The position numbers were made by a program, and so were the translations under genes. Source: Kiritimatiellia bacterium (GTDB lineage Bacteria; Verrucomicrobiota; Kiritimatiellia; RFP12; UBA1067). From it: a DNA stretch of 64,000 bases. Each line of letters starts with the position of its first letter. Within the stretch, counting starts at the first letter, position 1. The stretch spans positions 2,221-66,220 of the forward strand of contig JAFWKK010000016.1 of NCBI GenBank assembly GCA_017514235.1, written 5' to 3'. Below are positions 21,385 to 41,815 of the stretch, piece by piece. The notes under the pieces were generated by a model, which made no database searches, had not been told where the DNA came from, and saw nothing but the letters and a program-made list of their open reading frames with translations.

Positions 21385-23829
21385 GTGAATGTCATGAGCA
21401 AAGCAATGGTTTTAGCCTTTTCGACAACCGCATTAGTTTCGTGCGGAGTGTGCGCGGCGGAGGTGGAGCAGGTGTTTAGACCGGAGCGGTATTCGCGCGG
21501 TGACACGAACGTGCGCGTGCAGCAGCCTATCGACGAGGCGTCGTGGGTGTGGGCGCAGGGCAGCGAAGTGTGGGGCGGGGCCGTATTCTCCAACACGCGC
21601 ACCGATCCCGCGACGCTCGCCAAGATGCCGCAGTCGTTCTTCCGGTTCCGCCGCGACTTCACGGCTGAGGAGGAGCCGCTGGAGATTGACATTTCCGCCG
21701 ACGAGCGGTTCGTTCTGCTTCTTGACGGCAGGGAGATTGCTAGAGGCCCTATGCGAGGTCTTCCAAACCGCTGGCACTACCAGAGCTACAGGGTTGCGGG
21801 GCTTGCTCAGGGGACGCATCGTCTTGAGGCGGTCTGCTGGCAGGTTGGCGAACATGCGCCTCTCGCGCAGGTCTCCGTGCGCGGCGGTTTCATAGCAAGG
21901 GCCTACGGCGGTTACGATTCGCAACTCACTACGGGCAAGGCGACGTGGAGAGTCGCGCCGCTTCACAGTACGCGCATGACGCATAAGGGGAAGTCGGGCG
22001 CGTTCGGCGTCGGTTCGCAGTGCGAGGTCTCAGGAGCGTCGCTGCTTGACGAGGAACCGTCCGCCGAATCGTGGCAAGACGCCGTCGTCGTGCGCGGCCC
22101 CGTCAAGACCTGGGCCGGGCTTACGGTGCAGGGCTGGAAGCTGTTCCCCTCGCCCCTCAGGGACTTGATGCACGAGCTGAAGACGCCTGGCGAGGTGAAG
22201 CGCGGATTCGACGTCCTGAAAGCGGGTGCGGTCGTGTCCGCCAACACGAAAGTCACGGCGTGGTGGGATCTCGGCAACTACTACTGCGCGTATCCGTCAT
22301 TGACTGTCTCCGGCGGCAAGGGCGCAAGAGTCAGCTGGGACTGGGCTGAGTGCCTGACCGGGGCGGACGGCAAGAAGGGGGATCGCGCGGCATTCGGAGA
22401 TGGACTGGACATGCCTCGTCCGTTCGGCGACGTGTTTCTCTGCGACGGGCGCGCACGTGCCCGTTTCTCCACGCCGTGGTGGCGCTGCGGACGCTGGTGC
22501 CGGCTGACGATAGAGACGGCGGACGAGCCGTTGACTCTCGACAAGGTCGAAATCGCCGAGACGCGCTACCCTGTTGAAATGGCCGCCTCGTTCGATTGCG
22601 ACGATCCGTTTGTCATGAAGATGCAGCCCGTGTGCGCACGCGCCTTGCAGATGTGCATGCACGAGATGTTCTTCGACTGCCCGTACTACGAGCAGCAGAT
22701 GTATCCAGGCGACAGCCGCGTTCAGTACCTTGTCTCCGGTCTTTTCGACACCGAGGACCGCATGGTTCGCAACGCGATTACGCTCTACGACACCGACCGA
22801 CGCGAGAACGGCATGATTCCCATGAACTGTCCGACACGCGGGATGCAGGACGCGCTGGGCTTCACGTGCTGCGAGGCGATGATGTTCGGCGACTACGCCT
22901 GGAATCATACGAACCGGGACTGGCTCAAGGCGCGGCTTCCTGGCCTCAACCACACGCTGATGGGAATGGAGCTGTTCTTGAACGGAGATGGGCTGCTTGG
23001 CAAGACGCCTGGCTGGAACTTCGTTGATTGGGTTTCGTCGTGGAGAGACGGCGTGCCGCCTGACGGCGACGATGAGAGGCCGAACGCCGAGATGAACCTG
23101 CAGTATCTCCACGCGATCCTTTCGGCTGCGATTGCCGAGGAGGCTGTCGGCGACGCTACGCTGGCAGCGCATTGGCGGACGCGAGCCGAGGTGCTAAAGG
23201 CTGCCCTGCGCAAGGCGTTCTGGTGCGCGGACAAGGCGCTGTTCTCGTCCGATGTGTCGAAGACAAAGTTCAGCGAGCATTCGCAGTGCCTTGCGCTTCT
23301 GGCTGACGTTGTGACGGGCGAAGAGGCCGAGCGTTGCTTCAAGGCTTTGGTCGAGACGCCTGATCTTGCCCGCGGCACGATCTATTACAAGCACTATCTC
23401 TTTGCGACATGCTTCAAGTTCCGACGCTCCGATCTCTTCTTCGGCAACCTCGGCTTCTGGCGCGATTGCCTTAACTGGAACCTCTCGACTATCCTTGAGA
23501 CGCCAAACATCAACTCGCGCAGTGACTGCCACGGTTGGGGGTCTCATCCGCTCTGGCACCTGCATACGGGCGTTGCGGGCGTGAAGAGCGCCGCGCCGTT
23601 CTACGAGAAGGTCCTTGTAGAGCCTCAGCCCGCGCACCTGAAGCATATTCGCAGCTCCACGCCTACACCGAGGGGAGACGTGAAGCTTGACCTGGCGTTT
23701 GACGGAGAAGCGGTGTCCGGCACGGTTGCGCTGCCGGAAGGTCTTGCCGGAGTCTTTCGGTGGAAGGGCCATGAGCTGCCGCTCGCAGCCGGCAAGCCAT
23801 GTAACATAAGTATCTCAACTGGCAAATGA
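21385..23829 (+). CDS. GH78-like alpha-L-rhamnosidase family protein (start GTG 21385 or ATG 21394)
   Basis: Signal-like N-terminus. FFDCPYYEQQMYPGDSRVQ is typical of the six-hairpin domain of the bacterial rhamnosidase family. An N-terminal rhamnosidase-like beta domain has RFRRDF...LLLDGREIARGP. Confidence 0.7.
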   Translation: MNVMSKAMVLAFSTTALVSCGVCAAEVEQVFRPERYSRGDTNVRVQQPIDEASWVWAQGSEVWGGAVFSNTRTDPATLAKMPQSFFRFRRDFTAEEEPLEIDISADERFVLLLDGREIARGPMRGLPNRWHYQSYRVAGLAQGTHRLEAVCWQVGEHAPLAQVSVRGGFIARAYGGYDSQLTTGKATWRVAPLHSTRMTHKGKSGAFGVGSQCEVSGASLLDEEPSAESWQDAVVVRGPVKTWAGLTVQGWKLFPSPLRDLMHELKTPGEVKRGFDVLKAGAVVSANTKVTAWWDLGNYYCAYPSLTVSGGKGARVSWDWAECLTGADGKKGDRAAFGDGLDMPRPFGDVFLCDGRARARFSTPWWRCGRWCRLTIETADEPLTLDKVEIAETRYPVEMAASFDCDDPFVMKMQPVCARALQMCMHEMFFDCPYYEQQMYPGDSRVQYLVSGLFDTEDRMVRNAITLYDTDRRENGMIPMNCPTRGMQDALGFTCCEAMMFGDYAWNHTNRDWLKARLPGLNHTLMGMELFLNGDGLLGKTPGWNFVDWVSSWRDGVPPDGDDERPNAEMNLQYLHAILSAAIAEEAVGDATLAAHWRTRAEVLKAALRKAFWCADKALFSSDVSKTKFSEHSQCLALLADVVTGEEAERCFKALVETPDLARGTIYYKHYLFATCFKFRRSDLFFGNLGFWRDCLNWNLSTILETPNINSRSDCHGWGSHPLWHLHTGVAGVKSAAPFYEKVLVEPQPAHLKHIRSSTPTPRGDVKLDLAFDGEAVSGTVALPEGLAGVFRWKGHELPLAAGKPCNISISTGK

Positions 23830-23879
23830 CTGCTTGTCATGACGCACGGACAAGCAGAGGCAAGGGCGTTGCGTTTTTT
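23830..23879 (+). terminator. Terminator-like structure after the GH78-like gene
   Basis: CTGCTTGTC / GACAAGCAG is a perfect 9-bp stem with a 10-nt loop. It is followed by the small hairpin GCAAGGGCGTTGC and a T6 run. Confidence 0.45.
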
Positions 23880-23910
23880 ACAGGCGAATTGTAAAAAGTA
23901 CAGTTGATTT
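23871..23910 (+). promoter_or_regulatory. Conserved 40-nt upstream element, copy 1 (core ATTGTAAAAAGTACAGTTGATTT)
   Basis: 35/40 identical to 35763..35802, with the last 23 nt identical. Contains TGTA-N5-TACA and T[AG]CAG-N15-TACAG. Its 3' TTGATT serves as the -35. Confidence 0.7.
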
Positions 23911-23932
23911 TGCGTAGCTGGTGGCGTATAAT
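23904..23932 (+). promoter_or_regulatory. Promoter TTGATT-17 nt-TATAAT (DUF4091/GH123-like operon)
   Basis: The -35 is embedded in the conserved element. GCGTATAAT is the -10 region. The leader to ATG 24038 is about 100 nt. Confidence 0.6.
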
Positions 23933-24037
23933 AAACGCGCAATGGAATGCTGTTCGCGCAAATCGTTTATAACCGGCTCTGCCGCGTTTGCGGCGTGCGG
24001 GCGTCGGGCCATTGAAACCAAGGCAAGCGGATGAGAT

Positions 24038-26842
24038 ATGGCAAAGCGACTTCTCATTGTCTTGGCCCTGCTTGGTACGTTTGCGGCAATTGCGGATGCG
24101 GACCTGCCAAATGCTCGGTTCGATAAGGCCCTGGAAGGCCAGCCGGATGGCTGGCGGCTTACGGCGTCCGACGGCGGTGACTGGCTGAAGAATGTCGGTC
24201 GTGATGGTGATGCCGCGATACGGGTGACAGGCAAGGGCTCCTCGTCCGGGCAGTGGCGATCCGATCCCGTGGAACTGGCGACAGGACGATGCTATGTCTT
24301 TTCGTTCTGGAGCAAGGGGAACGGGTCAGGCTGCGTCACCAGCGGAATCGACGACATGAACGTGGATTGGGGTTGTGCGGGAGAGCAGTGGACTCAACGC
24401 CTCAACGTTTTGCGGACTCCAGATCGGCCAGGCGTCTACACCCCGGCATTTCATCTGGGCCAGTGGATGATGGATGGCGAAGCGCTTTTTGACGATGTGG
24501 CGTTGACGCCCGTCAGGCCCGTCTACGTGAAGGCTGGCGATGTGGAGCTTGGCCATGGCGAACAGGTTGACGGCAACCGATATTCGTTCTCTACGCAATA
24601 TGGCGCAGTGTCGCGGAACCATGCGCGGACGCTCGTGGAGGGGACGTCATCCTTCAATTCGGACCGTTGGGACATTGGGCGAGGGCGTTGCATCGCTTAC
24701 CGCTTTGCCCTTCCCCGCCGCACATGGAGCTCCGCAAAGGTCGGTGTGACCTGCGGACATTATACAAAAGGAACGGCGGATGTCGAGATTTCGTCCGATG
24801 GGGAAAAATGGAAACAGCTTGCCATGGTCACAAGTGCGACGACGGTGGAACTTGACGTTCCGGCGTCACTCTTTCCTGCTGCCGCAATTTTCGTCCGTGT
24901 TCGCGGGAACGATCCTTGCCAGCTGCAGATATATCACGTATCCTTCATTGGTGAATTTTCTGGCGTGCCTGTGACGGCTGTAGGTGCTACGAAATATTTG
25001 GACGAGAAGTCGGGGACTGTCGTATGCAAGACAGCCGGATGTACGTTCTTCTCTGACGATTACGGCGAAATCTTGCCGTGCGGCGGCAATGACGTGAATC
25101 TCTGGCGGGCGTCGAGCGGATGGAAGATTCCACGAGTGCGAGAGCTTCCGAAGAAGAAGGCCAAGGGTCTTTTCATCCAAACGGCGGCGAATGAGGCGGA
25201 AGCCGTGCAGCTTGTAGTTTCGCCGAAGGATGCCCTTGATGACGTCCGGGTCGAAGTGGCAGGTCCGCTGGTCTGCCGCTCTGCCGGAAAGGAACTGACG
25301 GCAGTCTCCGTGGAGGTCCTTCGTGTCGGATATGTTTCAGTGGACGTTCCGACAGACGAAGTGGGGTGCCGTGCGCGCTGGCCCGATCCTCTGCCGCCGC
25401 AGGACGGCGCGGCATTCCCTGTTGCGGCAGGAGAGAACCAACCGTTCTGGGTGCGCGTGAAGCCGCCTAAGGGAACGCCTAAGGGCGTCTATGCCGGCTC
25501 GCTGCAGGTGGTCTGCTTAAAAGCAAAGAGCCGACAGAAGATGACTTTCTCCGTTCCGCTGTCCGTAGAGGTGTTTGGATTCGAGTTGCCGGATGTGATG
25601 ACATGCGAGACGGCGTTCGATTTCTCGCTATGGACCGTCTCGAAGTATCATGGGCTCAAGACCGCCGAGGAGAAAAAAATTGTCGCGGAAAAGTATCTCC
25701 GTTCGCTTGGCGACCATCACATCTCGCCATACGATCCTGCGCCCAACGTAAACTGGAGCGTGAAGTGGAAGGGGATGGAGAATCCCATGACCGCCGAGCC
25801 GGCGTTTGACTGGGCGTCTTGGGACAAGGCGGTGGAGGAGGCGCTCGCCAAGCATCACTTCAACACGTTTCTCATTCGTGTAAAAGGGCTTGGCGGAGGC
25901 AACTATCAGAAATGGTCGCAACCGGAGTTCATGGGAATTCCTGCCGACAATCCGGCGTATGATGTCCTGGTCGGGAAGTATCTTCACGGGATTGAACGTC
26001 ATCTGGAGGAGAAGGGCTGGCTGGATAAGGCGTTCCTCTACGCCTTCGATGAGCCGGAGCCGAGGCACTATCCGATTGTGATGCGGATATTCGAGACAGT
26101 GAAACGACATGCGCCGAAGCTGCGTCGTATGGTCACGGAGGAGGCCGTCGAGGCGCTTCACGGCGGGCCGAACCTCTGGGTGCCGCTCACGCCGAACCTT
26201 CACGTCTCCGGAGAGAAGAAGGCTCGCGCTGCAGGTGACACATTCTGGTGGTACGTGTGCTGTGGACCGAAGGCCCCGTATGTCACGGAGTTCATCGACC
26301 ACCCCGGCACGGAAATGCGCCTGTGGCTGTGGCAGACGTGGGGAGAGAACGTGTCAGGCATCTTGATCTGGGCGACGACATGGTGGACCAGCGCGAACGC
26401 CTACCCCGATCCAGCCCATCCGCAGAACCCCTACGAAGACCCAATGGGCTGGTGCGAGAGCGACAGCCTCGGGAGAGGGACGAAAAGTCCGTGGGGAAAC
26501 GGCGACGGACGCTTTCTCTATCCGCCGCGTGCTGCGGCCCAGCCGTCGCCCACGCCAGTCCTGGACGGGCCTGTCGATTCGTTCCGCATCGAGATGCTTC
26601 GTGACGGCATCGAGGACTATGAGTATTTTGCGATGCTGAAACGGCTTCTTGACGAACGGCGAAATCTTCCTCCGGCCTTTCGCGCCAATGCCGAAGCGCT
26701 ACTGAAGGTGCCGTCGTCCGTCTATTCGTCGATGACGGAGTTCACGACGGATCCGGAGCCGATGGAGGCTCACCGCAAGAAACTTGCGCGTGCAGTCGAA
26801 AAGATTTTGATACAATACAATGCAGCCGGGGTGAAATCATGA
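24038..26842 (+). CDS. Secreted DUF4091/GH123-like glycoside hydrolase with an N-terminal carbohydrate-binding-like region
   Basis: Signal peptide is MAKRLLIVLALLGTFAAIADA. The C-terminal half has YAFDEPEP, WWYVCCGP, GILIWATTWW, GDGRFLYP and FRIEMLRDGIEDYEYF, recalled as DUF4091 features. Confidence 0.7.
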   Translation: MAKRLLIVLALLGTFAAIADADLPNARFDKALEGQPDGWRLTASDGGDWLKNVGRDGDAAIRVTGKGSSSGQWRSDPVELATGRCYVFSFWSKGNGSGCVTSGIDDMNVDWGCAGEQWTQRLNVLRTPDRPGVYTPAFHLGQWMMDGEALFDDVALTPVRPVYVKAGDVELGHGEQVDGNRYSFSTQYGAVSRNHARTLVEGTSSFNSDRWDIGRGRCIAYRFALPRRTWSSAKVGVTCGHYTKGTADVEISSDGEKWKQLAMVTSATTVELDVPASLFPAAAIFVRVRGNDPCQLQIYHVSFIGEFSGVPVTAVGATKYLDEKSGTVVCKTAGCTFFSDDYGEILPCGGNDVNLWRASSGWKIPRVRELPKKKAKGLFIQTAANEAEAVQLVVSPKDALDDVRVEVAGPLVCRSAGKELTAVSVEVLRVGYVSVDVPTDEVGCRARWPDPLPPQDGAAFPVAAGENQPFWVRVKPPKGTPKGVYAGSLQVVCLKAKSRQKMTFSVPLSVEVFGFELPDVMTCETAFDFSLWTVSKYHGLKTAEEKKIVAEKYLRSLGDHHISPYDPAPNVNWSVKWKGMENPMTAEPAFDWASWDKAVEEALAKHHFNTFLIRVKGLGGGNYQKWSQPEFMGIPADNPAYDVLVGKYLHGIERHLEEKGWLDKAFLYAFDEPEPRHYPIVMRIFETVKRHAPKLRRMVTEEAVEALHGGPNLWVPLTPNLHVSGEKKARAAGDTFWWYVCCGPKAPYVTEFIDHPGTEMRLWLWQTWGENVSGILIWATTWWTSANAYPDPAHPQNPYEDPMGWCESDSLGRGTKSPWGNGDGRFLYPPRAAAQPSPTPVLDGPVDSFRIEMLRDGIEDYEYFAMLKRLLDERRNLPPAFRANAEALLKVPSSVYSSMTEFTTDPEPMEAHRKKLARAVEKILIQYNAAGVKS

Positions 26843-29800
26843 ATGAAGCCAAAGGGAAGAGACGCATGAAAAGAAAGACTGTTTTCATAGTCGCGGGAGT
26901 TTTCCTGACAATGTCAGTCTCTGCGGACACCTACTACTGGCGCGGGTCCAACACCGCCTGGTCGGACTGGACAAACATCGCTGATGGCGGCTGGTCGCTT
27001 GCGCGCGATTCATATGTCGCGCCATCGCATGTGCCCGGCACGGATGCGGGCGACACGCTTTGGCCGTTTGGTGTTCAGTCACAAAACTATATAGGCAACT
27101 TCAATCTTGGCGGCGGCAGTTACACAGTTGCAGGCTACTCGTCGGAGGGCAATGTCCCTGCGAATTGGCAACTATATCAGTTGCAGATTACGAATGGAAC
27201 GCTGACGGTATCCAGTTTCCAGAAACCATTCAAGACGGGCAGCACTTCAGATCGTGCTCCAGTTGCATGGAGGTATGATGTCTGGAACGGCGCGACATTC
27301 AATTTTAATACGGTGCTTGGAGGCTTTGACCGGGCATACGGTGCAAGTGGGCTCTATGAATATTGGTATGTGATGTCTGGTGGTCGCATGAATCTTCCGG
27401 GGCCTTTGGTGCCTTGCGCTTTGGATGTTACCGTGAACAGCGGTGGCGTCCTGAATGTTGCAGACGGCACATTCCGCGTCAACAATAACTCTCATCGTGA
27501 TTATCCGAACAAGATCACAAACTTTGGCACACTACTTCTTCCGAATGGCTTTGAATGGGTTGCCGGCGATCCGTGGTCGCCTACCGCCAACAACTCAAAA
27601 GCCATGATCGTTACGCAAAGCGCCGGAGAAACCCGGATGGGCGGCGATTTCAAGAAGACCGGTCTTGAATCGCACAACTATACGGTGATGATGAAATTCG
27701 TGCTCCAGGGCGGAACGCTTACGGTCGAGGAGAACAAGTCGGTCTCGTTCATCAGCCACACGGACCGCAACTCAGGCTACACCAAGAGCGAGGAGGTGTT
27801 TGCCGAAATGCCTGCATCTGCATCGGCAACAGTGCAGACGCTTGCCGGCTCAGTGCTTGACATGTCACTCTTCACATACGGCAACGGGGCTGCGTTGACG
27901 AAGACGGGATCTGGCACTCTGATTATGAAGGATCGCCCGGCGACAGTCAATGTGACGGCGGGCATGCTCAAGTTGACGAATTCTGTTGCCGATCTTTCGG
28001 GTGTCAGCCTTTCGTCTGGCACGACGCTTGAGTTTGCGCAGGCTGGAAATGTTGCAGCTGTGGCTCCGACCGGCTATGCCAGCGCAGTCTTTGCGCTCGA
28101 CAACTCCGGAGGTGCCTTTACCGACGGCGCTAACGTGATCTCTTCGAACGACGCTGATTTTCTTGCGGCTGTGGCTACATCATTGAATGCCGGCGGCACG
28201 GTGCCGGCAGGCCTGGCCGCGATAGTGTCCGGCGGTGCGGTAAAGGTGATGACGCCGCCGTCGCACACGTTCACGAGCGATGGCGAACTTGACCTTGGCG
28301 ATGCGTCAGGCTGGAACATGCCAGGCTACGTCGGCACAAACGTGTTTGTAAGCGGCGCATCGACAGTCGCCCTGATTTCGCCGGCCACCCCTGCGTTCGA
28401 CAGCATCACGCTGAGCGACGGCGCGACGCTGAAGGTTTCTGGCGATGGCATCGAATTGCCGAAGATTACGTTGCTTACCCCGTCAACGCTCCTCGTGCCG
28501 GGCGGATCGAGCGCGGTGATGACCAATGGCTTCACGGCTGCTGGCGATGTGAGCGGACTGCCTGTCGTCAAAGTAGAGACGAACGGAGTTCTCACCGTGG
28601 CGCGCGGCACGAAGTTCAAGAACTGCGCGGTGAAGCTCTATGGCGAGATCGGCGTGCCGCCGGTCTATGGCGACGTCAAGCTTGCGGATGACCAGGGCAT
28701 TCAGTTCGGCTATGCAGCGGCGGGCGAGACGACGTACTTCGCGATGGAGTCCATCGGAGGCAATATAAATGTCTCCGGCAATACGACGGTGGACCGTCAG
28801 AAGGAGCTGACTTTTGCATGGGCGGACAACGGCGGCCGGGTGCTGACGTACGGAGACATCCTGCTGAAGGACACGACGTTCAAGACGCCGCAAGGAGCCT
28901 GGCATTACATCGGCAAAATGATCGGCGGCTATAATCCGGACGATTCCGGCATTCGTGTGGTGCTTGACAACACGGTGTTGCCGTTGCGGCGCTTCAACTG
29001 GTTCAATTCCGGTACTGTCGTCTGCCGTAATGGCGGGAGGCTGGAGCGTCAGGACTATCATGCAGGAACCGACTGTCGCCTGACTGTCGACAGATACACG
29101 AGGATCGAATGCGAGGGCGAAGGCTCTGGACTTTTCCTGCCGTACGCGAACGTATGGCGTCCGTTCTACTACGACATCTGGCTAGATGGCGGCGTCGACC
29201 AGTTCACGTTCAGGGACGGCGCGGTTATGGCGGCGCACTACTACTGGGGCGGCAACCATTCTGTTCTCGTCTTCTCCAACGGCGTCTACCAGGTGGGTAC
29301 GCTTCCGTTCGTTTCCAGCGACAGGAATCCCAACCCGCCGAATGGAGATCCGCACAACTGGATGACCAACGCATTCACCGGGGCACATTCTGTGCGTATC
29401 GAACGGGGCGGCAAGCTGTTCTTCCAGTCCGCGTCCGTTCTCAGCGGAACGGAGTGGGACCGATACATGACGCTTGCCGACAAGCCGATCAAGGGCGAAG
29501 GCGACTTCGTGATGACTAACGGCGTGCCGGGACGCGGTTTTTCTGCGACTGTGGTCTGCAACCGCAACACCTCGACCGGCTCGATCTCCGTTGCGCCGTC
29601 CGCCGATCCGACTACGCTCTTCTTCAACGACGGTGCGAACTGGGCGGGCACGGTCGTAGCGGGCAATATAGCGCTTACGAACCTGACAGCGGCGGCGAGC
29701 CCTTCGACAGTCAGTTTCAAGACGCTTGACCTTTGCGGAATCTTCCCGATCCGCATCATGGATAATGGCGGAATCCACACAAACGACGTTGTGAACATTT

Positions 29801-30033
29801 CAACGGCATTGACGGGTGGCGGCGCGATCAAGCCGATCGTGCAGCCGGGGCTCAGGCTGTCAGGCGGCGAGACCTTCGTGCTGGGAACATGCCCGGCGGC
29901 CGGCGTCGACACGTCCGGTCTGCAGTCGCATGTGACGCGCAACTGGGAGCTCATGTCCGAAGACGCAGGCGGCGGCAAGGTGCGGTTGCTGCTCAAGTAC
30001 ATGCCTCGCGGGCTGCTCATTTCAATAAGGTAA
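26839..30033 (+). CDS. Large secreted beta-helix/adhesin-like protein with a PATR (autotransporter-associated beta-strand) repeat and a short C-terminal tail motif; no beta-barrel
   Basis: ATGA overlap with the upstream stop. Basic N-terminus plus a hydrophobic signal. LTKTGSGTLIMKDRPATVNVTAGMLKL matches the PATR pattern. Ends in MPRGLLISIR. Confidence 0.8.
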   Translation: MNEAKGKRRMKRKTVFIVAGVFLTMSVSADTYYWRGSNTAWSDWTNIADGGWSLARDSYVAPSHVPGTDAGDTLWPFGVQSQNYIGNFNLGGGSYTVAGYSSEGNVPANWQLYQLQITNGTLTVSSFQKPFKTGSTSDRAPVAWRYDVWNGATFNFNTVLGGFDRAYGASGLYEYWYVMSGGRMNLPGPLVPCALDVTVNSGGVLNVADGTFRVNNNSHRDYPNKITNFGTLLLPNGFEWVAGDPWSPTANNSKAMIVTQSAGETRMGGDFKKTGLESHNYTVMMKFVLQGGTLTVEENKSVSFISHTDRNSGYTKSEEVFAEMPASASATVQTLAGSVLDMSLFTYGNGAALTKTGSGTLIMKDRPATVNVTAGMLKLTNSVADLSGVSLSSGTTLEFAQAGNVAAVAPTGYASAVFALDNSGGAFTDGANVISSNDADFLAAVATSLNAGGTVPAGLAAIVSGGAVKVMTPPSHTFTSDGELDLGDASGWNMPGYVGTNVFVSGASTVALISPATPAFDSITLSDGATLKVSGDGIELPKITLLTPSTLLVPGGSSAVMTNGFTAAGDVSGLPVVKVETNGVLTVARGTKFKNCAVKLYGEIGVPPVYGDVKLADDQGIQFGYAAAGETTYFAMESIGGNINVSGNTTVDRQKELTFAWADNGGRVLTYGDILLKDTTFKTPQGAWHYIGKMIGGYNPDDSGIRVVLDNTVLPLRRFNWFNSGTVVCRNGGRLERQDYHAGTDCRLTVDRYTRIECEGEGSGLFLPYANVWRPFYYDIWLDGGVDQFTFRDGAVMAAHYYWGGNHSVLVFSNGVYQVGTLPFVSSDRNPNPPNGDPHNWMTNAFTGAHSVRIERGGKLFFQSASVLSGTEWDRYMTLADKPIKGEGDFVMTNGVPGRGFSATVVCNRNTSTGSISVAPSADPTTLFFNDGANWAGTVVAGNIALTNLTAAASPSTVSFKTLDLCGIFPIRIMDNGGIHTNDVVNISTALTGGGAIKPIVQPGLRLSGGETFVLGTCPAAGVDTSGLQSHVTRNWELMSEDAGGGKVRLLLKYMPRGLLISIR
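30001..30030 (+). other. Extreme C-terminal tail motif MPRGLLISIR-stop
   Basis: Same motif as above. Encoded with AT-rich codons (TCA ATA AGG TAA). Confidence 0.6.
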
Positions 30034-30058
30034 CCCTAAAAGCAAGGAGGAAAATAAA

Positions 30059-30922
30059 ATGACACACAAGGAACGGAAAGAGGAAGTGCGCGAGATTCTC
30101 GCGCTGGATACGGATGAACTCGTGAAGCGCGCGAAGGGACAGCTGGTGCTGTTCCCGACGCTTGACGAAGTGTACGACTATCTCGCAGAAGAGATGGTGA
30201 AGGAGTTCGCCAAGGCGGCGAAGGGCAAGAAGATAGTGAACTTTATCATGCCTGTCGGCCCCACGCAGCCATACCGCCTGATGGCCGAGAAGATCAACTA
30301 CCGCCAGCTGAACCTGAAGAACGTCCGCTTCTTCTTTATGGACGAGTATGTCGACGACGAGAAGGACGAGCTTATCCCGAAGACTAGCCCGCTTTCGTTC
30401 CGCGGGCAGATCGGCCCGTTGCTCTTCAACCGCATCCGCCCGGACCTGATGATGCCGAAGGACCAGATAATCTTCCCGACACCGAAGAACGTCAAGGACC
30501 TCCCGAAGATGATAAAGGACGCCGGAGGCATCGAGGTGTGCTACGGCGGCATAGGCATCCACGGGCATGTCGCGTTCAACGAGCCGGCGCCGGGCGTGGC
30601 GGAGTCTAACCCGCGCATACTTGAGATCAACGAGTTCACGCGGACGATCGACTCTACGCGTCATTGCGGCGTCGGCGGCAATCTTGAGAACTTCCCGCGC
30701 CGCGCGATCACGATGGGCATGAAACAGTGTCTTGAAGCGCGCAAGATGCTCCTCATGACGCGCAACGAGACGACGGCGTACCTCTGGGCGAACACGATTC
30801 TCAGGATTGCCGCGCTCGGCAAGCCGGGCGACGACTATCCCGTCACCCACGCGCGCTACCACAAGAACCTGCGCATCGTCTCGGACTACGGCACGGCCCA
30901 GAAGCCCAGATTCAACATCTGA
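30059..30922 (+). CDS. nagB: Glucosamine-6-phosphate deaminase/isomerase family protein (NagB-like)
   Basis: AAGGAGG Shine-Dalgarno upstream. FFFMDEYV and GGIGIHGHVAFNEPAPG motifs. Confidence 0.78.
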   Translation: MTHKERKEEVREILALDTDELVKRAKGQLVLFPTLDEVYDYLAEEMVKEFAKAAKGKKIVNFIMPVGPTQPYRLMAEKINYRQLNLKNVRFFFMDEYVDDEKDELIPKTSPLSFRGQIGPLLFNRIRPDLMMPKDQIIFPTPKNVKDLPKMIKDAGGIEVCYGGIGIHGHVAFNEPAPGVAESNPRILEINEFTRTIDSTRHCGVGGNLENFPRRAITMGMKQCLEARKMLLMTRNETTAYLWANTILRIAALGKPGDDYPVTHARYHKNLRIVSDYGTAQKPRFNI

Positions 30923-30936
30923 CGGATTGCTGCCAG

Positions 30937-33141
30937 ATGTCGGGATTGCTTGCAGCATTTCTGTGCGCTGTCGGAATGCCGTCCTTGGCGTTTGACGAGG
31001 GCGGCTTTTCCATCGACTTCGCCGCTGCTTCGGCCCGGCGTTTCGCCAATGGCGCGAAGTTCACGGAACGGTCGGGCTATCCCGTGTCGGTGACGAACCG
31101 TCCGTTCGGATACATCGACAACCGCTTCGCGATTTCCGAAGGGCAGTGCGGAGTCGTGTCTTTCGGCTGGCGACGCGACAGCGCCTATCCGTGCAAAGTC
31201 CATACCAAAGACTTCCACTTCGAAATCGGCATTCCGCGCGGCTATCGCCTGCTGGGAACGACCTTTGGAGACGTCGCGTCGCGCAGAACGGATACGTCGC
31301 CTGACGGGTCGGCCGTCGTCCGCTGCAGGATCCGCGACGGACTCGAGCCGAGCTCGTGGATGAACAACCAGTCGCCATGCAATGTGCTTGTCGCGCCGAA
31401 TGACGGAGCGGGGACGGGGAACCTGACGTTCCGGGTCGTAGACCCGCGCGGAACCCCGCTTTCCAATCTTGCGTCCGTCGAGCTTTACTTAGTGCCGCCG
31501 GTGAAGGCGAAGGCGGTTCCGAAGCGTTTCCGCAACGGCATGGACGCCTCGTTGCACATATATTTCCGCGAGGCGTCAGCCTATGAGGAGCTAGCCAGAC
31601 TGTTCGGGGACATCGGCGCGAGGTGGCTGGTGCAGGACATTCGCAATGGGGCGTTCATTCCTTATTGGCGCAAGCATGCGGGAGGCCCTGTCACGCCGAT
31701 GTGGGAAAAAGTCATCGAGAACGGTTTCCGCGTCGGCCGTCCCGAAACCTTGCCTGCCTCGGAGCATTTCGTATGCGACCCGAAAAGTCCGCGCGTAACC
31801 CGTAAGGAGGGGCGTGCGAAGTACCTCTCAGACTCGACGTGCCCGACGACAGTCTACCGCGAAAGCGAGCATTTCAGGACCGTGACGATGGCCGAACTGG
31901 ACAGGCTTCTTGCCGGGGCGGACGGACTGTGGGGCAATTGGGAGCCGTCGATGTTCTACAAGAACGGCTGCTGGTGCGAACGTTGCCGCGACGAGTTCAC
32001 ATCATGGTCAATGCTGCCGGCGGACGAAGTGAAAAGGGAATGGCCGAAGCTTATCCAGGAAGGGGGACGTCTTGAAAGGCTGGGGTTGAAGTTCCATTCG
32101 TGGCAGCACGCTAACGTCGTGAGGACGCTTGACCGTTACGTCCGCAAGGCAACGGGCGGCGAGAAGTCCTGCGGATTCATTCCAGGCGTCGCTGCGGTGG
32201 AGATGTCCGATTACTGGCTGCGGACCGGATACCCGCAGGCAATGCTGCAGATCGACTATTCAGGCGACGTCAGGTGGATGAACCCGTGGGGGCCGTATGT
32301 GCGCTGGGAGTCGGAACACCCGTACGTGCATGAGCGCCGGGCCTCGCTGATCTACTGGGTTTACGCGCAGGACGTCAAAAGGACCGTGGCGATCGACCAT
32401 CGGGACGGGCGCATTCCGAAGCTGCTTTCGTATCCGCAGGGTGGCCAGTGCGGAACGTGGGTGACGCAGCCAGAGCAGATCGGCCTTGCGCTCGACTCGT
32501 TCCTGCTAAACGGCTGGGACGCCAATTGCGTCTATTATTTTCCGAACGGATACGATGCCCGTTACTTGAAGGCATTCGCCGAAGCCAACGAGCGCGCAGC
32601 CGTTGCGGAGGATTTCGTCTTGGACGGGACACCTGCGGACGACCGCGTTTTGGTCTCTCCGGTTGCGGAGTATGCCGTGCCGGTCAGGACAGTGACGGCA
32701 TGGCTGCCGGCTTACACTAACGTATCGCTCTTGCAGTCCAAGGCGTTCGACTTGAAGGGCAGCCGGCTGGTTGCAGTTCTTAACTTCTGGGATGCGGGGA
32801 TGGCGTTTGCCAGTCTGAAATGCAGCGGTCTTGCCGCAGGGGAGTATTCCGTGGTTTCGGGTGACATGGCCTGGGTCAAGGACCTCGAGCGTCCTTATTG
32901 GACGGCCGAAGAGCTGGCGAACGGGATTCGCGTTGCGGTCGGCGCGGCGAGATCGTCGTTCTTCGTGGTCCGTCCGCGGGGGACGCGCGTGCCGAGGGGA
33001 TTGGCCAGGCTTGTGACGAGCGACGCAATTGACGCGCTTTACGCGCAGCGCCGTGCCGCGCTCAGAGACGCGGCGGAACGCGATGCGGAAGAAGAGCGCC
33101 GCCTGCCGCCGCCGAAAATGGATTGGATGGGCCTTAACTGA
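30937..33141 (+). CDS. Hypothetical secreted protein (734 aa) with a CxCxxC motif
   Basis: Signal-like N-terminus MSGLLAAFLCAVGMPSLA. WGNWEPSMFYKNGCWCERCRDEF. No family recognised. Confidence 0.65.
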   Translation: MSGLLAAFLCAVGMPSLAFDEGGFSIDFAAASARRFANGAKFTERSGYPVSVTNRPFGYIDNRFAISEGQCGVVSFGWRRDSAYPCKVHTKDFHFEIGIPRGYRLLGTTFGDVASRRTDTSPDGSAVVRCRIRDGLEPSSWMNNQSPCNVLVAPNDGAGTGNLTFRVVDPRGTPLSNLASVELYLVPPVKAKAVPKRFRNGMDASLHIYFREASAYEELARLFGDIGARWLVQDIRNGAFIPYWRKHAGGPVTPMWEKVIENGFRVGRPETLPASEHFVCDPKSPRVTRKEGRAKYLSDSTCPTTVYRESEHFRTVTMAELDRLLAGADGLWGNWEPSMFYKNGCWCERCRDEFTSWSMLPADEVKREWPKLIQEGGRLERLGLKFHSWQHANVVRTLDRYVRKATGGEKSCGFIPGVAAVEMSDYWLRTGYPQAMLQIDYSGDVRWMNPWGPYVRWESEHPYVHERRASLIYWVYAQDVKRTVAIDHRDGRIPKLLSYPQGGQCGTWVTQPEQIGLALDSFLLNGWDANCVYYFPNGYDARYLKAFAEANERAAVAEDFVLDGTPADDRVLVSPVAEYAVPVRTVTAWLPAYTNVSLLQSKAFDLKGSRLVAVLNFWDAGMAFASLKCSGLAAGEYSVVSGDMAWVKDLERPYWTAEELANGIRVAVGAARSSFFVVRPRGTRVPRGLARLVTSDAIDALYAQRRAALRDAAERDAEEERRLPPPKMDWMGLN

Positions 33142-33150
33142 AACGGTGAA

Positions 33151-34551
33151 ATGAAACGATTTGATTTCTCTCGACGAGGATTTTTGCGGCTGGGCGTCGC
33201 GGGGGCGGCGATGTCTGCGGCCGACTGGCGACTGTGGGCGGCGGAGGAACGCCTGCCGGCCTACTACGGCGAGCATCTTGCAAAAGTCGCCGAGCGCATG
33301 CGCACGCTGTCGAAGAATTGCGACGACGCATTCTTCTTCATCACAGACCTGCACACGCCTTCAAACAGATGCGTTTCAGGACGGATTCTCGCCAAGTTGA
33401 TCGCCGAGACTGGCGTGAAGAAGGTGCTGTGCGGAGGAGATCTGACGGAAGCGTTCGGCGGCAAGGCGTCCGTCGACCGCACCGTAGCCGATTACCGCGA
33501 GCAATGGGTGGCGACGGTCGAGCGCGCTGGCGGCGAGTTCTATCCGGCGAAGGGCAACCATGATTTCACGATCAAGGACAGCCCGACGGCGCAGAGCGGC
33601 TTTACATACGACGGAAAGTCCGCGCACGACATCCTGATGGACACCGCAGCCGTCAGGGCGAATGCCGTCACGAACCCTGACGATCCTGAGGCATGCTACT
33701 ACTACGTCGACTGCCAGGAATCGCGCATGCGCTATATCGTAGCCGACACGACTGACAGCATAAGAACCGACCGCACCTATTGGGCGGTGCAGTACGGCAT
33801 TGGCGAAAGACAGCTCAGCTGGTTGGCGGAAAAGGCGTTTTCGACAATCCCTTCCGGCTGGGGCGCGCTAGTCATGCACCATATCCCAGTGACGGGAATC
33901 GCAAGCGGCGAGGACGGGAACCTGACTCTGTTCGCGCCGTGGCGGAATCTGCTTGAGGCATATCAGAACCGCAGCAAGGCGTCGGTTGGCGGCAAAGCAT
34001 ACGATTTCTCTTGTGCGCACGGACGGATCATTTGCAGCCTGACCGGACATGAACATGCGGAGAGACAGACGTTTCAGAACGGGCTCTGGCACATCACAGA
34101 ACCGTGCGACGCCGCATACAGCGACTACATCGTAGGCTCCTTGCCGTGGTGCAGGAACCTGCCGACGAAGGAGAAGGGCACGGTTTACGAACAGACGTTT
34201 GACGCCATCCACATTGACAGGCGCAACGATGTCCTGCACTTCACCCGCATAGGCGGCGGCGGAAACCGCATGTTCCATCTTGACTCCCTCCGCGCCAAGG
34301 TCGGCGAGCCGTTGCGACTCGCTGCGGCAAAGTTGAAGGGCGACGTGGCATGGGGATGCTACGACGCAGACAGGGCGACAAAGAAGCGGAATCCGAAGAA
34401 CAGGTACCAGCACTTCTACGGCTACTTCAACGATGTCGCGGATGTTTCGGCAGACGGCATGTTCACTTCAAAGAAGCCAGGCGAGTCGGTCGTTCTTGCA
34501 ACAGCCGCAAACGGCGACAAGGAGTTGTTTGCCGTGAGCACATCGTGTTAA
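33151..34551 (+). CDS. Tat-signal metallophosphoesterase
   Basis: MKRFDFSRRGFLRLGVAGAAMSAA twin-arginine signal. FFFITDLHTP, CGGDL, KGNHDF, MHHIP and TGHEH motifs. Confidence 0.8.
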   Translation: MKRFDFSRRGFLRLGVAGAAMSAADWRLWAAEERLPAYYGEHLAKVAERMRTLSKNCDDAFFFITDLHTPSNRCVSGRILAKLIAETGVKKVLCGGDLTEAFGGKASVDRTVADYREQWVATVERAGGEFYPAKGNHDFTIKDSPTAQSGFTYDGKSAHDILMDTAAVRANAVTNPDDPEACYYYVDCQESRMRYIVADTTDSIRTDRTYWAVQYGIGERQLSWLAEKAFSTIPSGWGALVMHHIPVTGIASGEDGNLTLFAPWRNLLEAYQNRSKASVGGKAYDFSCAHGRIICSLTGHEHAERQTFQNGLWHITEPCDAAYSDYIVGSLPWCRNLPTKEKGTVYEQTFDAIHIDRRNDVLHFTRIGGGGNRMFHLDSLRAKVGEPLRLAAAKLKGDVAWGCYDADRATKKRNPKNRYQHFYGYFNDVADVSADGMFTSKKPGESVVLATAANGDKELFAVSTSC

Positions 34552-34557
34552 TTGCGG

Positions 34558-35736
34558 TCAGGAGGGCGTCCGCTCGCGCCAGTCGGACGGGGTCAGCCCC
34601 GTTGCCGTAGAGAATGCGCGAGACAGGTATTCCAACGTAGAGAAGCCAGTTCGTGCCGCAACCTCCTTGATCGGCAGGGAAGTGTGCGAGAGAAGCTTCT
34701 TCGCCTCTTCAATTCGCGTTTCTGCAATTTGCCTCTGCACAGATGTGGCGATGTTGTCCCTGAAGGTGCGCTCCACGAGCGTGCGCGAGAACCCTACATG
34801 CCTGAATACGTCTGAAGCCGATATGCCCTTGGTGGCGTTAGAACGGATGAATGCGAGTGCATCTGCAAACCATTGTGGCGCATGCGGGTAGATGTTGGTA
34901 GATGCACGTTCGACGATTCCTTTGGGCGGTATGATCACCTGTGGAGGATTTTCTCGTGCATTCTTTTCCGACAGCATTTTTGCAAGCGCAGAGGCTGCGG
35001 CCCGTCCGATGGCAGGGGCGCCGGGGTCTATGCTTGAAAGGCGTGGCGTCGTGAACATGCAGAACATCGGGTCGTCATCCACGCCGAGTATCGCTACGTC
35101 GGACGGGGCCGAGAGTCTTAGCAAATGGCATGCGGCGAGAACGTGCGAAGCCCGAAGGTCATCGCAACAGAACACGCCTATGGGTTTCGGCAGCCGCTTA
35201 AGCCATTTGGAAAGGTCGTCAAAGTCAGGAGGCGATTCGATGTGGTCGCCCAGCAGGAAGTCGCGTCTGAAGCGGTTCTGGGGATGAAACGGCGGACGGT
35301 AGATTGCGGGACGAATCTTGTTCTTCTCAAGAAATGTGGCGAATGCGTTGCGACGCCTGTCCGAGAAGGAAACGCGGCGGTAGCCGCAGAACGCGAAGTT
35401 TGAGAATCGGTGCCGCATCAGATGCTCTGCGGCTAGGCGTCCGATTGCATCGGCATCAGTCTTGACTGTGGCGAACCTCGGCTGTGAGATTGCACAGAGG
35501 CAGTCAACGACAGGACTTTCGCATCGGGCCAGCGCCTTTGCCGTGCGGATGTCGACAACGCGGCAGATCCAGCCGTCGAATCCGTTGGACGCCTTGAACG
35601 CGGCTTGCTGGGGATCGACAAGCACGAGACTCCATTCCGGATGCTGTTCGGCGATCTCGGCAACGCCGCATATGCAGTTGCGTCCATAGGCACTAGACCG
35701 TTCTACGGCGACCGCTATGTTTATCTGTCGCTTCAT
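34558..35736 (-). CDS. XylR-like transcriptional regulator (periplasmic-binding-protein-like sugar sensor domain plus AraC-type HTH)
   Basis: N-terminus MKRQINIAVAVERSSAYGRN... is LacI/PBP1-like. The C-terminus SASDVFRHVGFSRTLVERTFR...IKEVAARTGFSTLEYLSRAFSTATGLTPSDWR is an AraC double HTH. The ATG lies 7 nt after TGTTATAAT on the minus strand. Confidence 0.85.
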   Translation of the reverse strand: MKRQINIAVAVERSSAYGRNCICGVAEIAEQHPEWSLVLVDPQQAAFKASNGFDGWICRVVDIRTAKALARCESPVVDCLCAISQPRFATVKTDADAIGRLAAEHLMRHRFSNFAFCGYRRVSFSDRRRNAFATFLEKNKIRPAIYRPPFHPQNRFRRDFLLGDHIESPPDFDDLSKWLKRLPKPIGVFCCDDLRASHVLAACHLLRLSAPSDVAILGVDDDPMFCMFTTPRLSSIDPGAPAIGRAAASALAKMLSEKNARENPPQVIIPPKGIVERASTNIYPHAPQWFADALAFIRSNATKGISASDVFRHVGFSRTLVERTFRDNIATSVQRQIAETRIEEAKKLLSHTSLPIKEVAARTGFSTLEYLSRAFSTATGLTPSDWRERTPS

Positions 35737-35743
35737 GCTCTGT

Positions 35744-35752
35744 ATTATAACA
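35744..35752 (-). promoter_or_regulatory. Extended -10 box TGTTATAAT on the minus strand (XylR-like regulator; leaderless)
   Basis: The reverse complement reads ATCTGTTATAATACAGAGCATG, with 7 nt between the -10 box and the ATG at 35736. Confidence 0.6.
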
Positions 35753-35762
35753 GATCTCCGTG

Positions 35763-35802
35763 GCGTTTTGTGCAGATGGATTGTAAAAAGTACAGTTGAT
35801 TT
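35763..35802 (+). promoter_or_regulatory. Conserved 40-nt upstream element, copy 2
   Basis: See copy 1. It lies between the divergent regulator promoter and the LamG-protein promoter. Confidence 0.7.
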
Positions 35803-35825
35803 CATGGAGATAGATTAAGTATAAT
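35796..35825 (+). promoter_or_regulatory. Promoter TTGATT-18 nt-TATAAT (LamG protein operon)
   Basis: The -35 is embedded in the conserved element. The leader to ATG 35908 is about 80 nt. Confidence 0.6.
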
Positions 35826-35907: not shown

Positions 35908-37560
35908 ATGAAAAGGCCACACGCCTTTACCGTCGCATGTCTGGCAGGTTGTGCTTTTGCAGCCTTTGGAACGGCCTGCGCAGAAACGGTCGCGTGGTAT
36001 CGGTTCGATGATGCGGATCCGGGCACGAAGACTACCGGCGGCATGGCCGTAACAAACTGTGTGGACGCTTCGTATCCTGCCATGCCGCGCACGATTTATA
36101 ACACGACATACCATGACAGCGCGTCCCCGAACCAGAACTATCTACCGACCTTCGCCGAGTCCGCTCCGACAAACTATGTAGTCTATGACCCTGTGAGCGG
36201 ACGGCGTGTCGCAAATCGCGGAGGACTTCACTTCCACACGAACGGAAGCTCTGACCGAAATGGCGGCCTGCTGCGCATCGAGGATAACGCGGCTCTTCGG
36301 GCGATTACGAATTTGACGCTGGAAGCGTTCATCCGTCTGCCTACAGATGTAGCCATTGCGGCAAACTATATGCGCCCGATCATTCTCAAGATGAATGATG
36401 GGTATCAAGGATCGTGGGGACTGCATGTGTTCGAGTCCAACCTCATGCATCGCGCAACGCTTCTTCTCGCTGACAACTCGACGAAGGTCTGTGCGTGGGG
36501 GAACAAGTCGCAGAGCGCGCGGGTGGATGACGGGCGGTGGCACCATATGGCCGTGACGTATGATTTCGGCACTCGGAAGGCGCGTTCCTACGTGGACTAT
36601 GAGTGTATAAACACGTTGGATATTGATGCCAACGCAGTCGGGTTCTATCATCCCGAGAACAGTCCATTGCTGATCGGCGGCAACGACTTGAATAATACGC
36701 GCCGGTTCTGCGGCGACATCGACGAGGTGAGGATTTCGAACGAGGCCTTGCCGCCGGAGAAGTTCCTGCGGTACATCCCGTTGCGCGAGATTGATGCGGA
36801 CACTGCGTTCTACATGCCGTTTGACGATGGCTTGGCGGAGTGGTTCAGCGCGTCGTATCCGCCGCTCAACGCGGCGACGAATGCGCCGGGAGGAGTATTC
36901 TGCTACCGCAATGAAGGGACTCCTGCCGCAGCCCGCGTTTTGGATGTGCCTGGCGACGGCATTCGTGCGGGGCGGCAGTCGATGACAAGATTCGCAGACG
37001 GCGGTGCAATCAATCTTCCGGTTACAGCGGTAGGCGTACACAACGGCACGAGTTTCACGTTGCAGGATCCGAACAAGTCGGTGGCTTCTGGCAGCTATAC
37101 GTTCGAGGCGTTCTTCAAGACGGACCGCCAGGTGACGAAACCGGCGGAATCGACGTATGGCGATTCGTTCTGCATCTTCAATGCGGCTTTCATGAAGGTG
37201 CTCATAAACGGCGGCGCGGGCGGCGATACGCTTTTCCGCCACAAGAGCGTGGATGGCGATACGAGCCTGCAGCTTGGCCCTCGTCTTGACGACGGCGTAT
37301 GGCACCATATCGCCCTTGTGTTCGATGCCGACACGCTGACAATGACCGGCTATGTCGATTACAAGGCTGTCACATCCTCCGCCGTTAAGGCAAAGGATTA
37401 TTCCGGTTCCGGCGATATTCGCTTGAGCGGCGAGAACTCCGGCTATCAGACGTTTGCCGGAAGCTTCGATGAGGTACGCATTACGCGGCGGGCGTTGGAA
37501 ACGAGAGAGTTCCTGACGACACGTCCCATTACTGGGGGTGTAAGGATATTAATCCGTTGA
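35908..37560 (+). CDS. Secreted protein with two LamG (concanavalin-like) domains and a short C-terminal tail motif
   Basis: Signal peptide is present. LTLEAFIRLP...GRWHHMAVTYD...CGDIDEVRISNEALPPEKF, then YTFEAFFKTD...GVWHHIALVFD...FAGSFDEVRITRRAL. Ends in ITGGVRILIR. Confidence 0.85.
   Translation: MKRPHAFTVACLAGCAFAAFGTACAETVAWYRFDDADPGTKTTGGMAVTNCVDASYPAMPRTIYNTTYHDSASPNQNYLPTFAESAPTNYVVYDPVSGRRVANRGGLHFHTNGSSDRNGGLLRIEDNAALRAITNLTLEAFIRLPTDVAIAANYMRPIILKMNDGYQGSWGLHVFESNLMHRATLLLADNSTKVCAWGNKSQSARVDDGRWHHMAVTYDFGTRKARSYVDYECINTLDIDANAVGFYHPENSPLLIGGNDLNNTRRFCGDIDEVRISNEALPPEKFLRYIPLREIDADTAFYMPFDDGLAEWFSASYPPLNAATNAPGGVFCYRNEGTPAAARVLDVPGDGIRAGRQSMTRFADGGAINLPVTAVGVHNGTSFTLQDPNKSVASGSYTFEAFFKTDRQVTKPAESTYGDSFCIFNAAFMKVLINGGAGGDTLFRHKSVDGDTSLQLGPRLDDGVWHHIALVFDADTLTMTGYVDYKAVTSSAVKAKDYSGSGDIRLSGENSGYQTFAGSFDEVRITRRALETREFLTTRPITGGVRILIR
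37528..37557 (+). other. Extreme C-terminal tail motif ITGGVRILIR-stop
   Basis: Same motif as above. Encoded with AT-rich codons (GTA AGG ATA TTA ATC CGT). Confidence 0.6.
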
Positions 37561-37571
37561 CGGTGAGATTA

Positions 37572-38912: not shown

Positions 38913-38925
38913 AGGGGAGATTGCA

Positions 38926-40353: not shown

Positions 40354-40392
40354 ACGGCCCTACTTGAAGCCGTGGATTTTCAGGCGGGGTTT

Positions 40393-40401
40393 TGGTAAAA
40401 T
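40393..40401 (+). promoter_or_regulatory. Extended -10 box TGGTAAAAT (Tat phosphatase gene)
   Basis: Followed by ACC, matching the TGGTAnAATAC pattern. AAGGAGGA Shine-Dalgarno lies before ATG 40443. Confidence 0.45.
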
Positions 40402-40442
40402 ACCTTCATCAAGGTTTCAGCAATCCAAGGAGGACTTCTGTG

Positions 40443-41768: not shown

Positions 41769-41815
41769 CGCTGCTGCGGGAATGGCAAAGCAAGCAAAGA
41801 AACAGGAGGACGTTC

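Follow-up and report, generated by a model that had tools for sequence, protein, structure and literature searches.

A Conserved 40-nt Element, Probably the Operator of an XylR-Type Regulator, at the Head of Two Putative Hexosamine-Glycan Operons in a PVC-Superphylum Bacterium

The segment 23868–23909 of the window (the whole 64,000-nt stretch of DNA analysed here) is likely to be the second operator of an XylR-type regulator encoded at 34558–35736, which would act through it and through a further copy of the same element (copy 2) to switch on the two operons that the copies precede. According to this proposal, the predicted regulator, together with a sugar (probably a hexosamine-derived one), would occupy both operator copies and bring RNA polymerase to the sigma-70-type promoters next to them, so that the GH123/NagB-like operon (24038–34551) and the LamG/GH20 operon (35908 onward) would be turned on together. 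We infer both that the regulator binds the element and that it activates, rather than represses, transcription.

A preliminary description of this DNA had read the element as a selected regulatory site of a small regulon, as opposed to the trace of a recent duplication. That reading is supported by the conserved block, by the unrelated flanks and by the linked regulator gene. The relevant features are collected in Table 1.

Table 1. Positions of the element, its promoters and the neighboring genes in the window
Feature	Positions	Strand	Remarks
Hairpin, CTGCTTGTC / GACAAGCAG	23830–23857	+	directly past the GH78-like stop codon; 9-bp stem, 10-nt loop
Putative operator, copy 1	23868–23909	+	~42 nt; sequence, weight matrix, conservation
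Distal repeat of copy 1, TTGCGTTTTTTACAG	23869–23883	+	
Spacer of copy 1, GCGAA		+	between distal and proximal repeats
Proximal repeat of copy 1, TTGTAAAAAGTACAG	23889–23903	+	followed by -35 TTGATT, 23904–23909
-10 box TATAAT, GH123 operon promoter	23927–23932	+	17 nt past the -35
Operon 1	24038–34551	+	five tightly spaced genes, gaps of -4 to 25 nt
GH123-family hydrolase	24038–26842	+	operon 1
1064-aa secreted protein	26839–30033	+	operon 1
NagB-like deaminase/isomerase, 287 aa	30059–30922	+	operon 1
734-aa protein	30937–33141	+	operon 1
Metallophosphoesterase	33151–34551	+	operon 1
XylR-type regulator, 392 aa	34558–35736	-	starts at MKRQINIAVAVERSSAYGR; Peripla_BP_3 and AraC double HTH
-10 box of the regulator, TATAAT	35744–35749	-	7 nt ahead of the ATG
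Putative operator, copy 2	35760–35801	+	weight-matrix score 68.5
Distal repeat of copy 2, TGGCGTTTTGTGCAG	35761–35775	+	
Spacer of copy 2, ATGGA		+	between distal and proximal repeats
Proximal repeat of copy 2, TTGTAAAAAGTACAG	35781–35795	+	followed by -35 TTGATT, 35796–35801
-10 box TATAAT, LamG operon promoter	35820–35825	+	18 nt past the -35
Operon 2	35908–42676	+	at least five genes
LamG_3 protein	35908–37560	+	operon 2
Beta-helix-like protein, 451 aa	37557–38912	+	operon 2
GH20 beta-hexosaminidase	38926–40353	+	operon 2
Purple-acid-phosphatase-like metallophosphoesterase	40392–41768	+	operon 2
Tat-signal xylose-isomerase-like TIM-barrel protein	41816–42676	+	operon 2

Two Copies of the Element, Each Adjoining a Promoter

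The stretches 23871–23910 and 35763–35802, which lie 11.9 kb apart in the same orientation, were identical at 35 of 40 positions by script count, as the preliminary description had stated. Its claim of a fully identical 23-nt core also proved correct: the 23-mer ATTGTAAAAAGTACAGTTGATTT occurs without any mismatch at 23888–23910 and 35780–35802, on the + strand in both cases. When up to three mismatches were allowed, this core was found twice in the window (vs no match in 100 shuffles) and exactly twice in the entire 3.96-Mb, 60% GC genome. A 46-column weight matrix, trained on 14 related sites, gave copy 1 the best score of all sites (74.8) and copy 2 a score of 68.5, with the rest of the genome below 12.

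Weight-matrix scans of the same genome, run for the full element as well as for the proximal half, revealed no weaker regulon members above a reversed-matrix control, and the shorter 21-nt matrix gave no weaker matches exceeding its own such control. Two 15-mer matches with two mismatches (on contigs C25 and C80) were rejected as further sites, as they had no promoter context.

The intergenic DNA around the two copies had been described as otherwise unrelated, in agreement with our pairwise alignment and blastn results, in which the two regions share a 44-nt block only. The search for longer flank homology, of the kind expected from a duplicated segment, was negative, as nothing was common beyond this block.

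In one reading, each copy comprises two related half-sites of 15 nt (TTGnnwwwwwkTrCAG) that are 20 nt apart, and in both copies the last base of the proximal half-site is followed directly by the -35 hexamer. Consistent with such a reading, the self-similarity of 20 distinct aligned sites, from genomes and metagenomes, was maximal at a shift of 20 (0.44–0.46, vs ~0.25–0.3 for most shifts). However, an inverted reading, TTTTTACA-N7-TGTAAAAA, scored about as high as the direct repeat, and centering on the GCGAA spacer gave 0.55 over 16 pairs; since the two readings are about equal, the internal symmetry of the element must be considered ambiguous. Copies 1 and 2 differ at five positions, all of them in the distal half; this half is likewise where species differ from one another, and the proximal 23 nt are nearly invariant across the 20 distinct sites. 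The resulting operator motif is GTTGCGTTTTkTrCAGrCGAATTGTAAAAAGTACAGTTG.

Downstream of either copy a TATAAT box stands in the same register, the spacers being 17 and 18 nt as originally noted, and each of the two promoters matches the consensus at 10 of 12 positions. The operator-to-promoter geometry was identical in all 20 distinct sites. Across species, TTG is the only conserved part of the -35 hexamer, the remaining three bases being variable.

Since the block is rich in A/T, in contrast to a genome of 60% GC, and occupies the position of an UP element, one might take it for a strong promoter of the generic kind, a module in which polymerase uses an A/T-rich UP element and a -35 and needs no dedicated factor. 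Such a module would hardly be limited to two copies in 3.96 Mb, with no weaker matches to the 21-nt matrix; moreover, the G/C positions within the block are exactly conserved and its distribution tracks one regulator gene (see below). We deem this explanation extremely improbable and treat the block as a putative operator in what follows.

Transcription from the copy 1 promoter is predicted to start at ~23939–23941, with a leader of ~98–100 nt to the ATG at 24038; the leader of about 100 nt proposed in the preliminary description thus follows from the promoter geometry. No Rfam match was obtained at E <= 1 in the region 23700–24200, and the predicted fold of the leader was not unusually stable (z = +1.4).

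The hairpin upstream of copy 1 had been called terminator-like and was thought to close the GH78-like gene, a description that our data do not favor. Besides having a 10-nt loop, the hairpin has no adjoining T-run, the nearest one being 17 nt away and itself part of the conserved operator. A terminator consensus scan at 23830–23857 detected none, the structure folded no better than shuffles (z = -1.2), and it is missing from the corresponding GH78–GH123 junction of G006, a related genome discussed below. We therefore rate it as a weak candidate terminator. As to the idea that copy 1 defines an independent transcription unit, the presence of its own promoter supports it, but a convincing terminator upstream is lacking, and some read-through from the GH78 gene could occur.

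Genes Downstream of the Element

The annotation of the genes behind copy 1 was retained in part. The GH123 label proved correct. The product designated nagB appears to be a distant relative of NagB only, as it matched TIGR00502 at 78 bits (cut-off, 237) and PDB entry 3HN6 with E = 2e-14. The PATR assignment was not recovered, the 1064-aa protein giving no Pfam or NCBIfam match at E <= 0.1. Copy 2 is part of the 171 nt that separate the regulator gene from operon 2, which is transcribed divergently from it.

Across species, the genes that follow the element encode NagB-like, GH123, GH20, GH109, LamG and PATR-like proteins and metallophosphoesterases. The GH123, GH20, GH109, NagB-like and LamG products point to hexosamine-containing (GalNAc/GlcNAc) glycans as the common theme.

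The XylR-Type Regulator

The gene for the regulator is located between the two element-headed operons, on the opposite strand and six bases past the end of operon 1. Its product matched Peripla_BP_3 (1.9e-33), HTH_18 (4.8e-19) and HTH_AraC (4.7e-9), and could be aligned end to end (residues 7–388, E = 4e-38) with Escherichia coli XylR (PDB 4FE4). The NCBIfam matches were to assorted AraC- and LacI-family models, all well under the cut-offs. When genome contigs were searched with the regulator as a query, only distant paralogues (<= 40%) were retrieved, from Lentisphaerae, Verrucomicrobiota and Planctomycetota.

The regulator is transcribed divergently with respect to copy 2; its ATG (35736, a start codon set by the N-termini of the orthologues) is separated by 24 nt from the conserved block (35760 onward). 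A TATAAT or TATACT box is found 7–9 nt ahead of the regulator ATG in 9 out of 9 orthologous loci compared (L071–L078 and L012, in addition to the window), and in the window (35737–35760) as in these nine loci the box is so near the ATG that there is no space for a Shine-Dalgarno sequence. Because of this short distance, the regulator mRNA is probably leaderless.

The -35 zone of this same promoter falls inside the distal repeat of copy 2. Since the distal half-site covers it, autoregulation is likely, and the regulator probably limits its own synthesis. Class II AraC/XylS activators show a comparable design: their gene diverges from a target operon, and the region common to both serves for autoregulation.

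Orthologues retain the predicted recognition helices (SRTLVER and STLEYLSRAF), whereas paralogues in these genomes, at 38% identity, have different ones, in agreement with the conservation of the operator. The window's own genome harbors a large family of PBP-AraC regulators; one of its 11 XylR-type paralogues, outside the window (G000:C49:27482-28648), carries an in-frame TGA and may be a pseudogene.

Conservation and Co-occurrence of Element and Regulator

We surveyed 221 species genomes of the same family, including the window's own (G000), scoring the element as present when a 19-mer core with at most one mismatch was accompanied by a full distal half and by a promoter. It was found in G000, G006, G021, G161, G176, G195, G204, G236, G239 and G240, and the weight matrix detected a diverged copy in G235. 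Orthologues of the regulator (52–70% identity, E <= 1e-110) occurred in 11 of the 221 genomes, namely the same set without G006 and with the addition of G235 and G140. Hence 10 of the 11 orthologue-bearing genomes had the element, as against one of the 210 others. For the resulting table (10 / 1 / 1 / 209), Fisher's test gave p = 2e-15, a figure uncorrected for shared ancestry or physical linkage, and the co-occurrence is partly due to the simple physical linkage of site and gene. The exception among orthologue-bearing genomes was G140, whose regulator is 52% identical and in which no element was detectable.

In seven genomes (G161, G176, G204, G235, G236, G239 and G240) the element is flanked by the regulator gene on one side and by the NagB-like gene on the other, the two diverging from it. 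An exact-match scan of metagenome contigs gave 17 matches, 15 of which contained the full element, nearly all with a regulator orthologue divergent upstream and a NagB-like gene downstream; the element adjoined a regulator orthologue in about 12 metagenome contigs. This divergent arrangement, regulator included, is likely the ancestral one.

The two remaining metagenome matches (L121 and L123) were without a distal half or a promoter and in unrelated contexts, and matches with two mismatches in other genera (G070, G135, G218, G227/G228, G231) lacked both distal half and promoter. All of these were attributed to chance, because they were about as frequent as matches to a reversed-pattern control (8 matches).

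The preliminary description had proposed aligning orthologous intergenic regions to see whether only the 23–40-nt block is conserved, and this is what we observed. For 14 sites in 11 genomes, mean column conservation was 0.83 in the 40–44-nt element, vs 0.45 upstream and 0.48 downstream. When the intergenic region of the window was compared by blastn with all the relatives' loci, the match was confined to 23867–23911 of the window. The element is conserved between genera whose regulators are just 59–70% identical.

Additional copies away from the regulator gene occur in orthologue-bearing genomes: besides copy 1 of G000, they were seen in G021, where they precede AXE1-type esterase genes, in G236, where a copy on contig C14 precedes a LamG / PATR-like / GH109 cluster, and in G195, where the copy is followed by the NagB-like gene and then by a homologue of the 1064-aa protein.

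A different, unlinked factor might in principle bind the element, for example a GntR/HutC-type amino-sugar repressor recognizing TGTA-N5-TACA, with the XylR-type gene as a mere neighbor. Amino-sugar regulons are often under GntR control, and the proximal half does have a palindromic center (0.525 complementarity). On the other hand, the conserved block is 40 nt long and asymmetric, with invariant non-palindromic parts (GAAT, AAAAAG, CAGTTG), and genes for other regulators were not seen next to the sites. The distribution described above also speaks for the neighbor: element and XylR orthologue are adjacent in seven genomes and about 12 metagenome contigs, and jointly absent from about 209 related genomes.

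The one observation of a genomic kind that might favor an unlinked factor comes from G006, the sole element-bearing genome with no regulator orthologue, where the element (21/23 in the core) lies ahead of the NagB-like gene. The identity of this element to copy 1, 86%, corresponds to the neutral level of the G000/G006 pair. The divergence between the two genomes is therefore short, and the orphan site may simply not have decayed yet. In our opinion the G006 case argues neither for nor against the regulator–operator model. Overall, we consider the involvement of an unlinked factor quite unlikely, and the XylR-type protein the probable cognate regulator.

Some further observations were made in these genomes. 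In G235, which is placed in another genus, the NagB-like protein (L086, G235:C52, 4632-5507) is 98% identical to that of the window; the regulator beside it is ~70% identical and the operator is the most diverged copy of all. Such a pattern suggests gene transfer, recombination or a binning problem. In G020 (L050, G020:C62), a NagB-like orthologue (82% identity) is found without an operator, preceded by a cysteine-synthase-like gene and a tandem array of ~12 CCTCTAT/CCTCTAC copies. One operator copy of G236 (L084, G236:C14, 5483-5500) shows a run of 12 A in the spacer between -35 and -10 (TTGAAAAAAAAAAAACC...), a homopolymer whose length variation could alter promoter spacing.

Comparison with Known Systems and Mode of Action

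The closest known counterpart of the regulator is E. coli XylR (4FE4, 4FE7; Ni et al. 2013, PMC3561964), which also combines a LacI/GalR-type sugar-binding domain with an AraC-type double HTH, as does our 392-aa protein. The E. coli protein does not bind DNA in the apo form, and with xylose it binds and activates both of its promoters; its two operators of ~37 bp each consist of two direct repeats and adjoin a -35, and one dimer binds two operator duplexes, looping the DNA between them (PMC3561964). In both systems, then, there are two operators of ~37–40 bp (IA and IF in E. coli) that allow a direct-repeat reading and lie beside a sigma-70 -35, and the operons that they head, one apiece, belong to a single sugar pathway.

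The differences are equally evident. The operator described here bears no relation to the consensus in E. coli (gaAa-a-a-AAT twice), the two copies are 11.9 kb apart in the same orientation (vs ~360 bp and divergent in E. coli), and no CRP-like site was seen. The targets are hexosamine-glycan hydrolases and a NagB-like enzyme instead of xylose genes.

In a pairwise alignment of roughly quarter identity, and hence tentatively, three of the six xylose contacts of E. coli XylR seem to be kept in the regulator (Tyr18, Arg139, Asp219) and three changed (Trp135 to Phe, Asp65 to Val, Gln237 to Pro). Because half of the ligand contacts are changed and because of the target genes, the inducer is probably a hexosamine-derived sugar and not xylose. 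With targets and operator differing and half of the contacts changed, the regulator does not appear to be an orthologue of E. coli XylR in the sense of a xylose-regulon regulator.

Were the regulator to share the stoichiometry of E. coli XylR, one dimer might also hold together copies 1 and 2, 11.9 kb apart, with the whole GH123/NagB-like operon and the regulator gene looped out in between. If true, bridging would couple the firing of both promoters; we find it unlikely.

The arrangement of the half-sites can also be compared with AraC at araI1-I2 and with the class II activators RhaS, MelR and XylS. The half-sites are in all cases about two helical turns apart, and the promoter-proximal one touches or overlaps the -35. 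In those proteins, however, the N-terminal domain is a cupin or some other domain, whereas a periplasmic-binding-protein fold is present here, and the half-site period is 20 nt in place of 21 nt. As for function, the NagC, NagR, DasR and AgaR regulons similarly include hexosaminidases and a hexosamine-6-phosphate deaminase-like enzyme, but their regulators are of the ROK, GntR or DeoR families and not AraC-PBP proteins, and our operator is no dre- or NagC-like palindrome and lies upstream of the -35, not over the promoter.

The main feature that fits activation poorly is the quality of the core promoters, near consensus here (10/12) and poor in E. coli (xylA, xylF), so that repression or a substantial basal activity is conceivable. 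Activator-dependent promoters, those of the E. coli xyl genes included, are usually poor. The same regulator at the same site could then be mainly a repressor, or a dual regulator: the promoters would fire by default, and the bound protein would obstruct polymerase until released by the sugar. Apart from the two 10/12 promoters, this would suit a sugar domain of the LacI/GalR repressor kind and the overlap of the distal half-site with the promoter zone of the regulator gene itself, since a protein bound there would repress.

Yet the site lies wholly upstream of the -35 (about -36 to -77), i.e., in the classic place for AraC/XylS/XylR activators and in a poor one for steric repression, and no conserved block extends over the -10 or the start. 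Furthermore, the -35 is conserved across species in TTG only, and apo E. coli XylR has no DNA binding and activates with xylose (PMC3561964). A mainly repressing or dual role therefore strikes us as unlikely. From the E. coli XylR analogy and from a site at about -36 to -77 with no conservation at the -10 or start, we infer sugar-dependent activation of the class II type.

The proposed control is well supported but of an ordinary bacterial kind; its mechanism would be the one expected of an AraC/XylR-type activator and would hardly surprise a specialist. In the literature that we searched, the work on E. coli XylR was the only description of a regulon of the same kind, and we found no transcription-factor regulon described in this PVC-superphylum lineage. 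The present analysis supplies an operator motif and a probable cognate regulator for this uncultured lineage. It also ties GH123, GH20, GH109, NagB-like and LamG genes into what would be a single response to hexosamine glycans, a linkage that aids the annotation of several unassigned secreted proteins in these operons. Finally, the regulator and its 40-bp operator represent a compact candidate for a sugar-inducible switch.

Rearrangements of the Locus

The locus is mosaic between the two species: at 85–92% DNA identity, that of G006 (L010, G006:C55) is syntenic with 21290–42921 of the window, interrupted by four clean differences, each the size of a gene. An 18-nt junction replaces a single 3.1-kb piece comprising the regulator, copy 2 and the LamG gene; the 1064-aa gene is absent, with a 117-nt promoter region in its place; a GH3 gene is found where the window has the 734-aa gene; and a 26-nt junction, devoid of the element, separates the GH78 and GH123 genes in place of the 208-nt promoter region. 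Recombination between the two direct copies was considered as the source of this layout and discarded, as it would remove the genes from GH123 through the regulator, which differs from what is seen in G006.

In G006, as in most other genomes, the operator–promoter cassette precedes the NagB-like gene; in the window it precedes GH123. Judging from such cases (G000 vs G006, G021), across species it may behave as a portable module that changes place in the locus along with gene gain and loss.

The varying position raises the question of whether the block might be a recent duplication or a small mobile promoter cassette, not selected as a binding site at all. Two facts favor this: the cassette is sited ahead of GH123 in G000 but ahead of the NagB-like gene in G006, although these loci are otherwise syntenic, and the G021 copy next to the regulator gene is cut off at a 3.3-kb insertion. 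But the flanks of copies 1 and 2 are unrelated on both sides, the 44-nt block alone being common, and no inverted repeats bounding the element (terminal inverted repeats) or target duplications were found at the block edges. The genome contains just two copies, whose five differences are all distal, in the part that varies between species, against an invariant proximal 23 nt, and the block is conserved between genera with regulators only 59–70% identical. On these grounds a duplication or mobile cassette seems very improbable, and a selected operator accounts better for the block.

In G021 (L007, G021:C57, 5237-5267 and 8530-8568; L012 2700-2734), the operator beside the regulator orthologue ends after ...GAATTGTAAAAAG. 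Past the broken operator there is a 3.3-kb stretch with two ATPase_2/DUF234-type AAA ATPase genes, and then a complete operator again, before the NagB-like gene. About 31 nt of the distal part of the operator are therefore present twice, with two differences, and the 3.3-kb stretch looks like an insertion into the operator. The XylR-like gene beside the NagB-like gene (L007:9679-10857) was rejected as the cognate regulator, being a G021-specific paralogue whose product shows about 31–33% identity to anything in G000 or G006; the true orthologue (67%) is 3.3 kb upstream.

The same genome has two near-identical AXE1-esterase promoter regions (L008 14061, G021:C57; L009 1740, G021:C34). The AXE1 copy on C34, a 5.9-kb contig, retains the proximal half of the operator only. 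The pair may represent strain variants, or else the assembly may contain a recent duplication.
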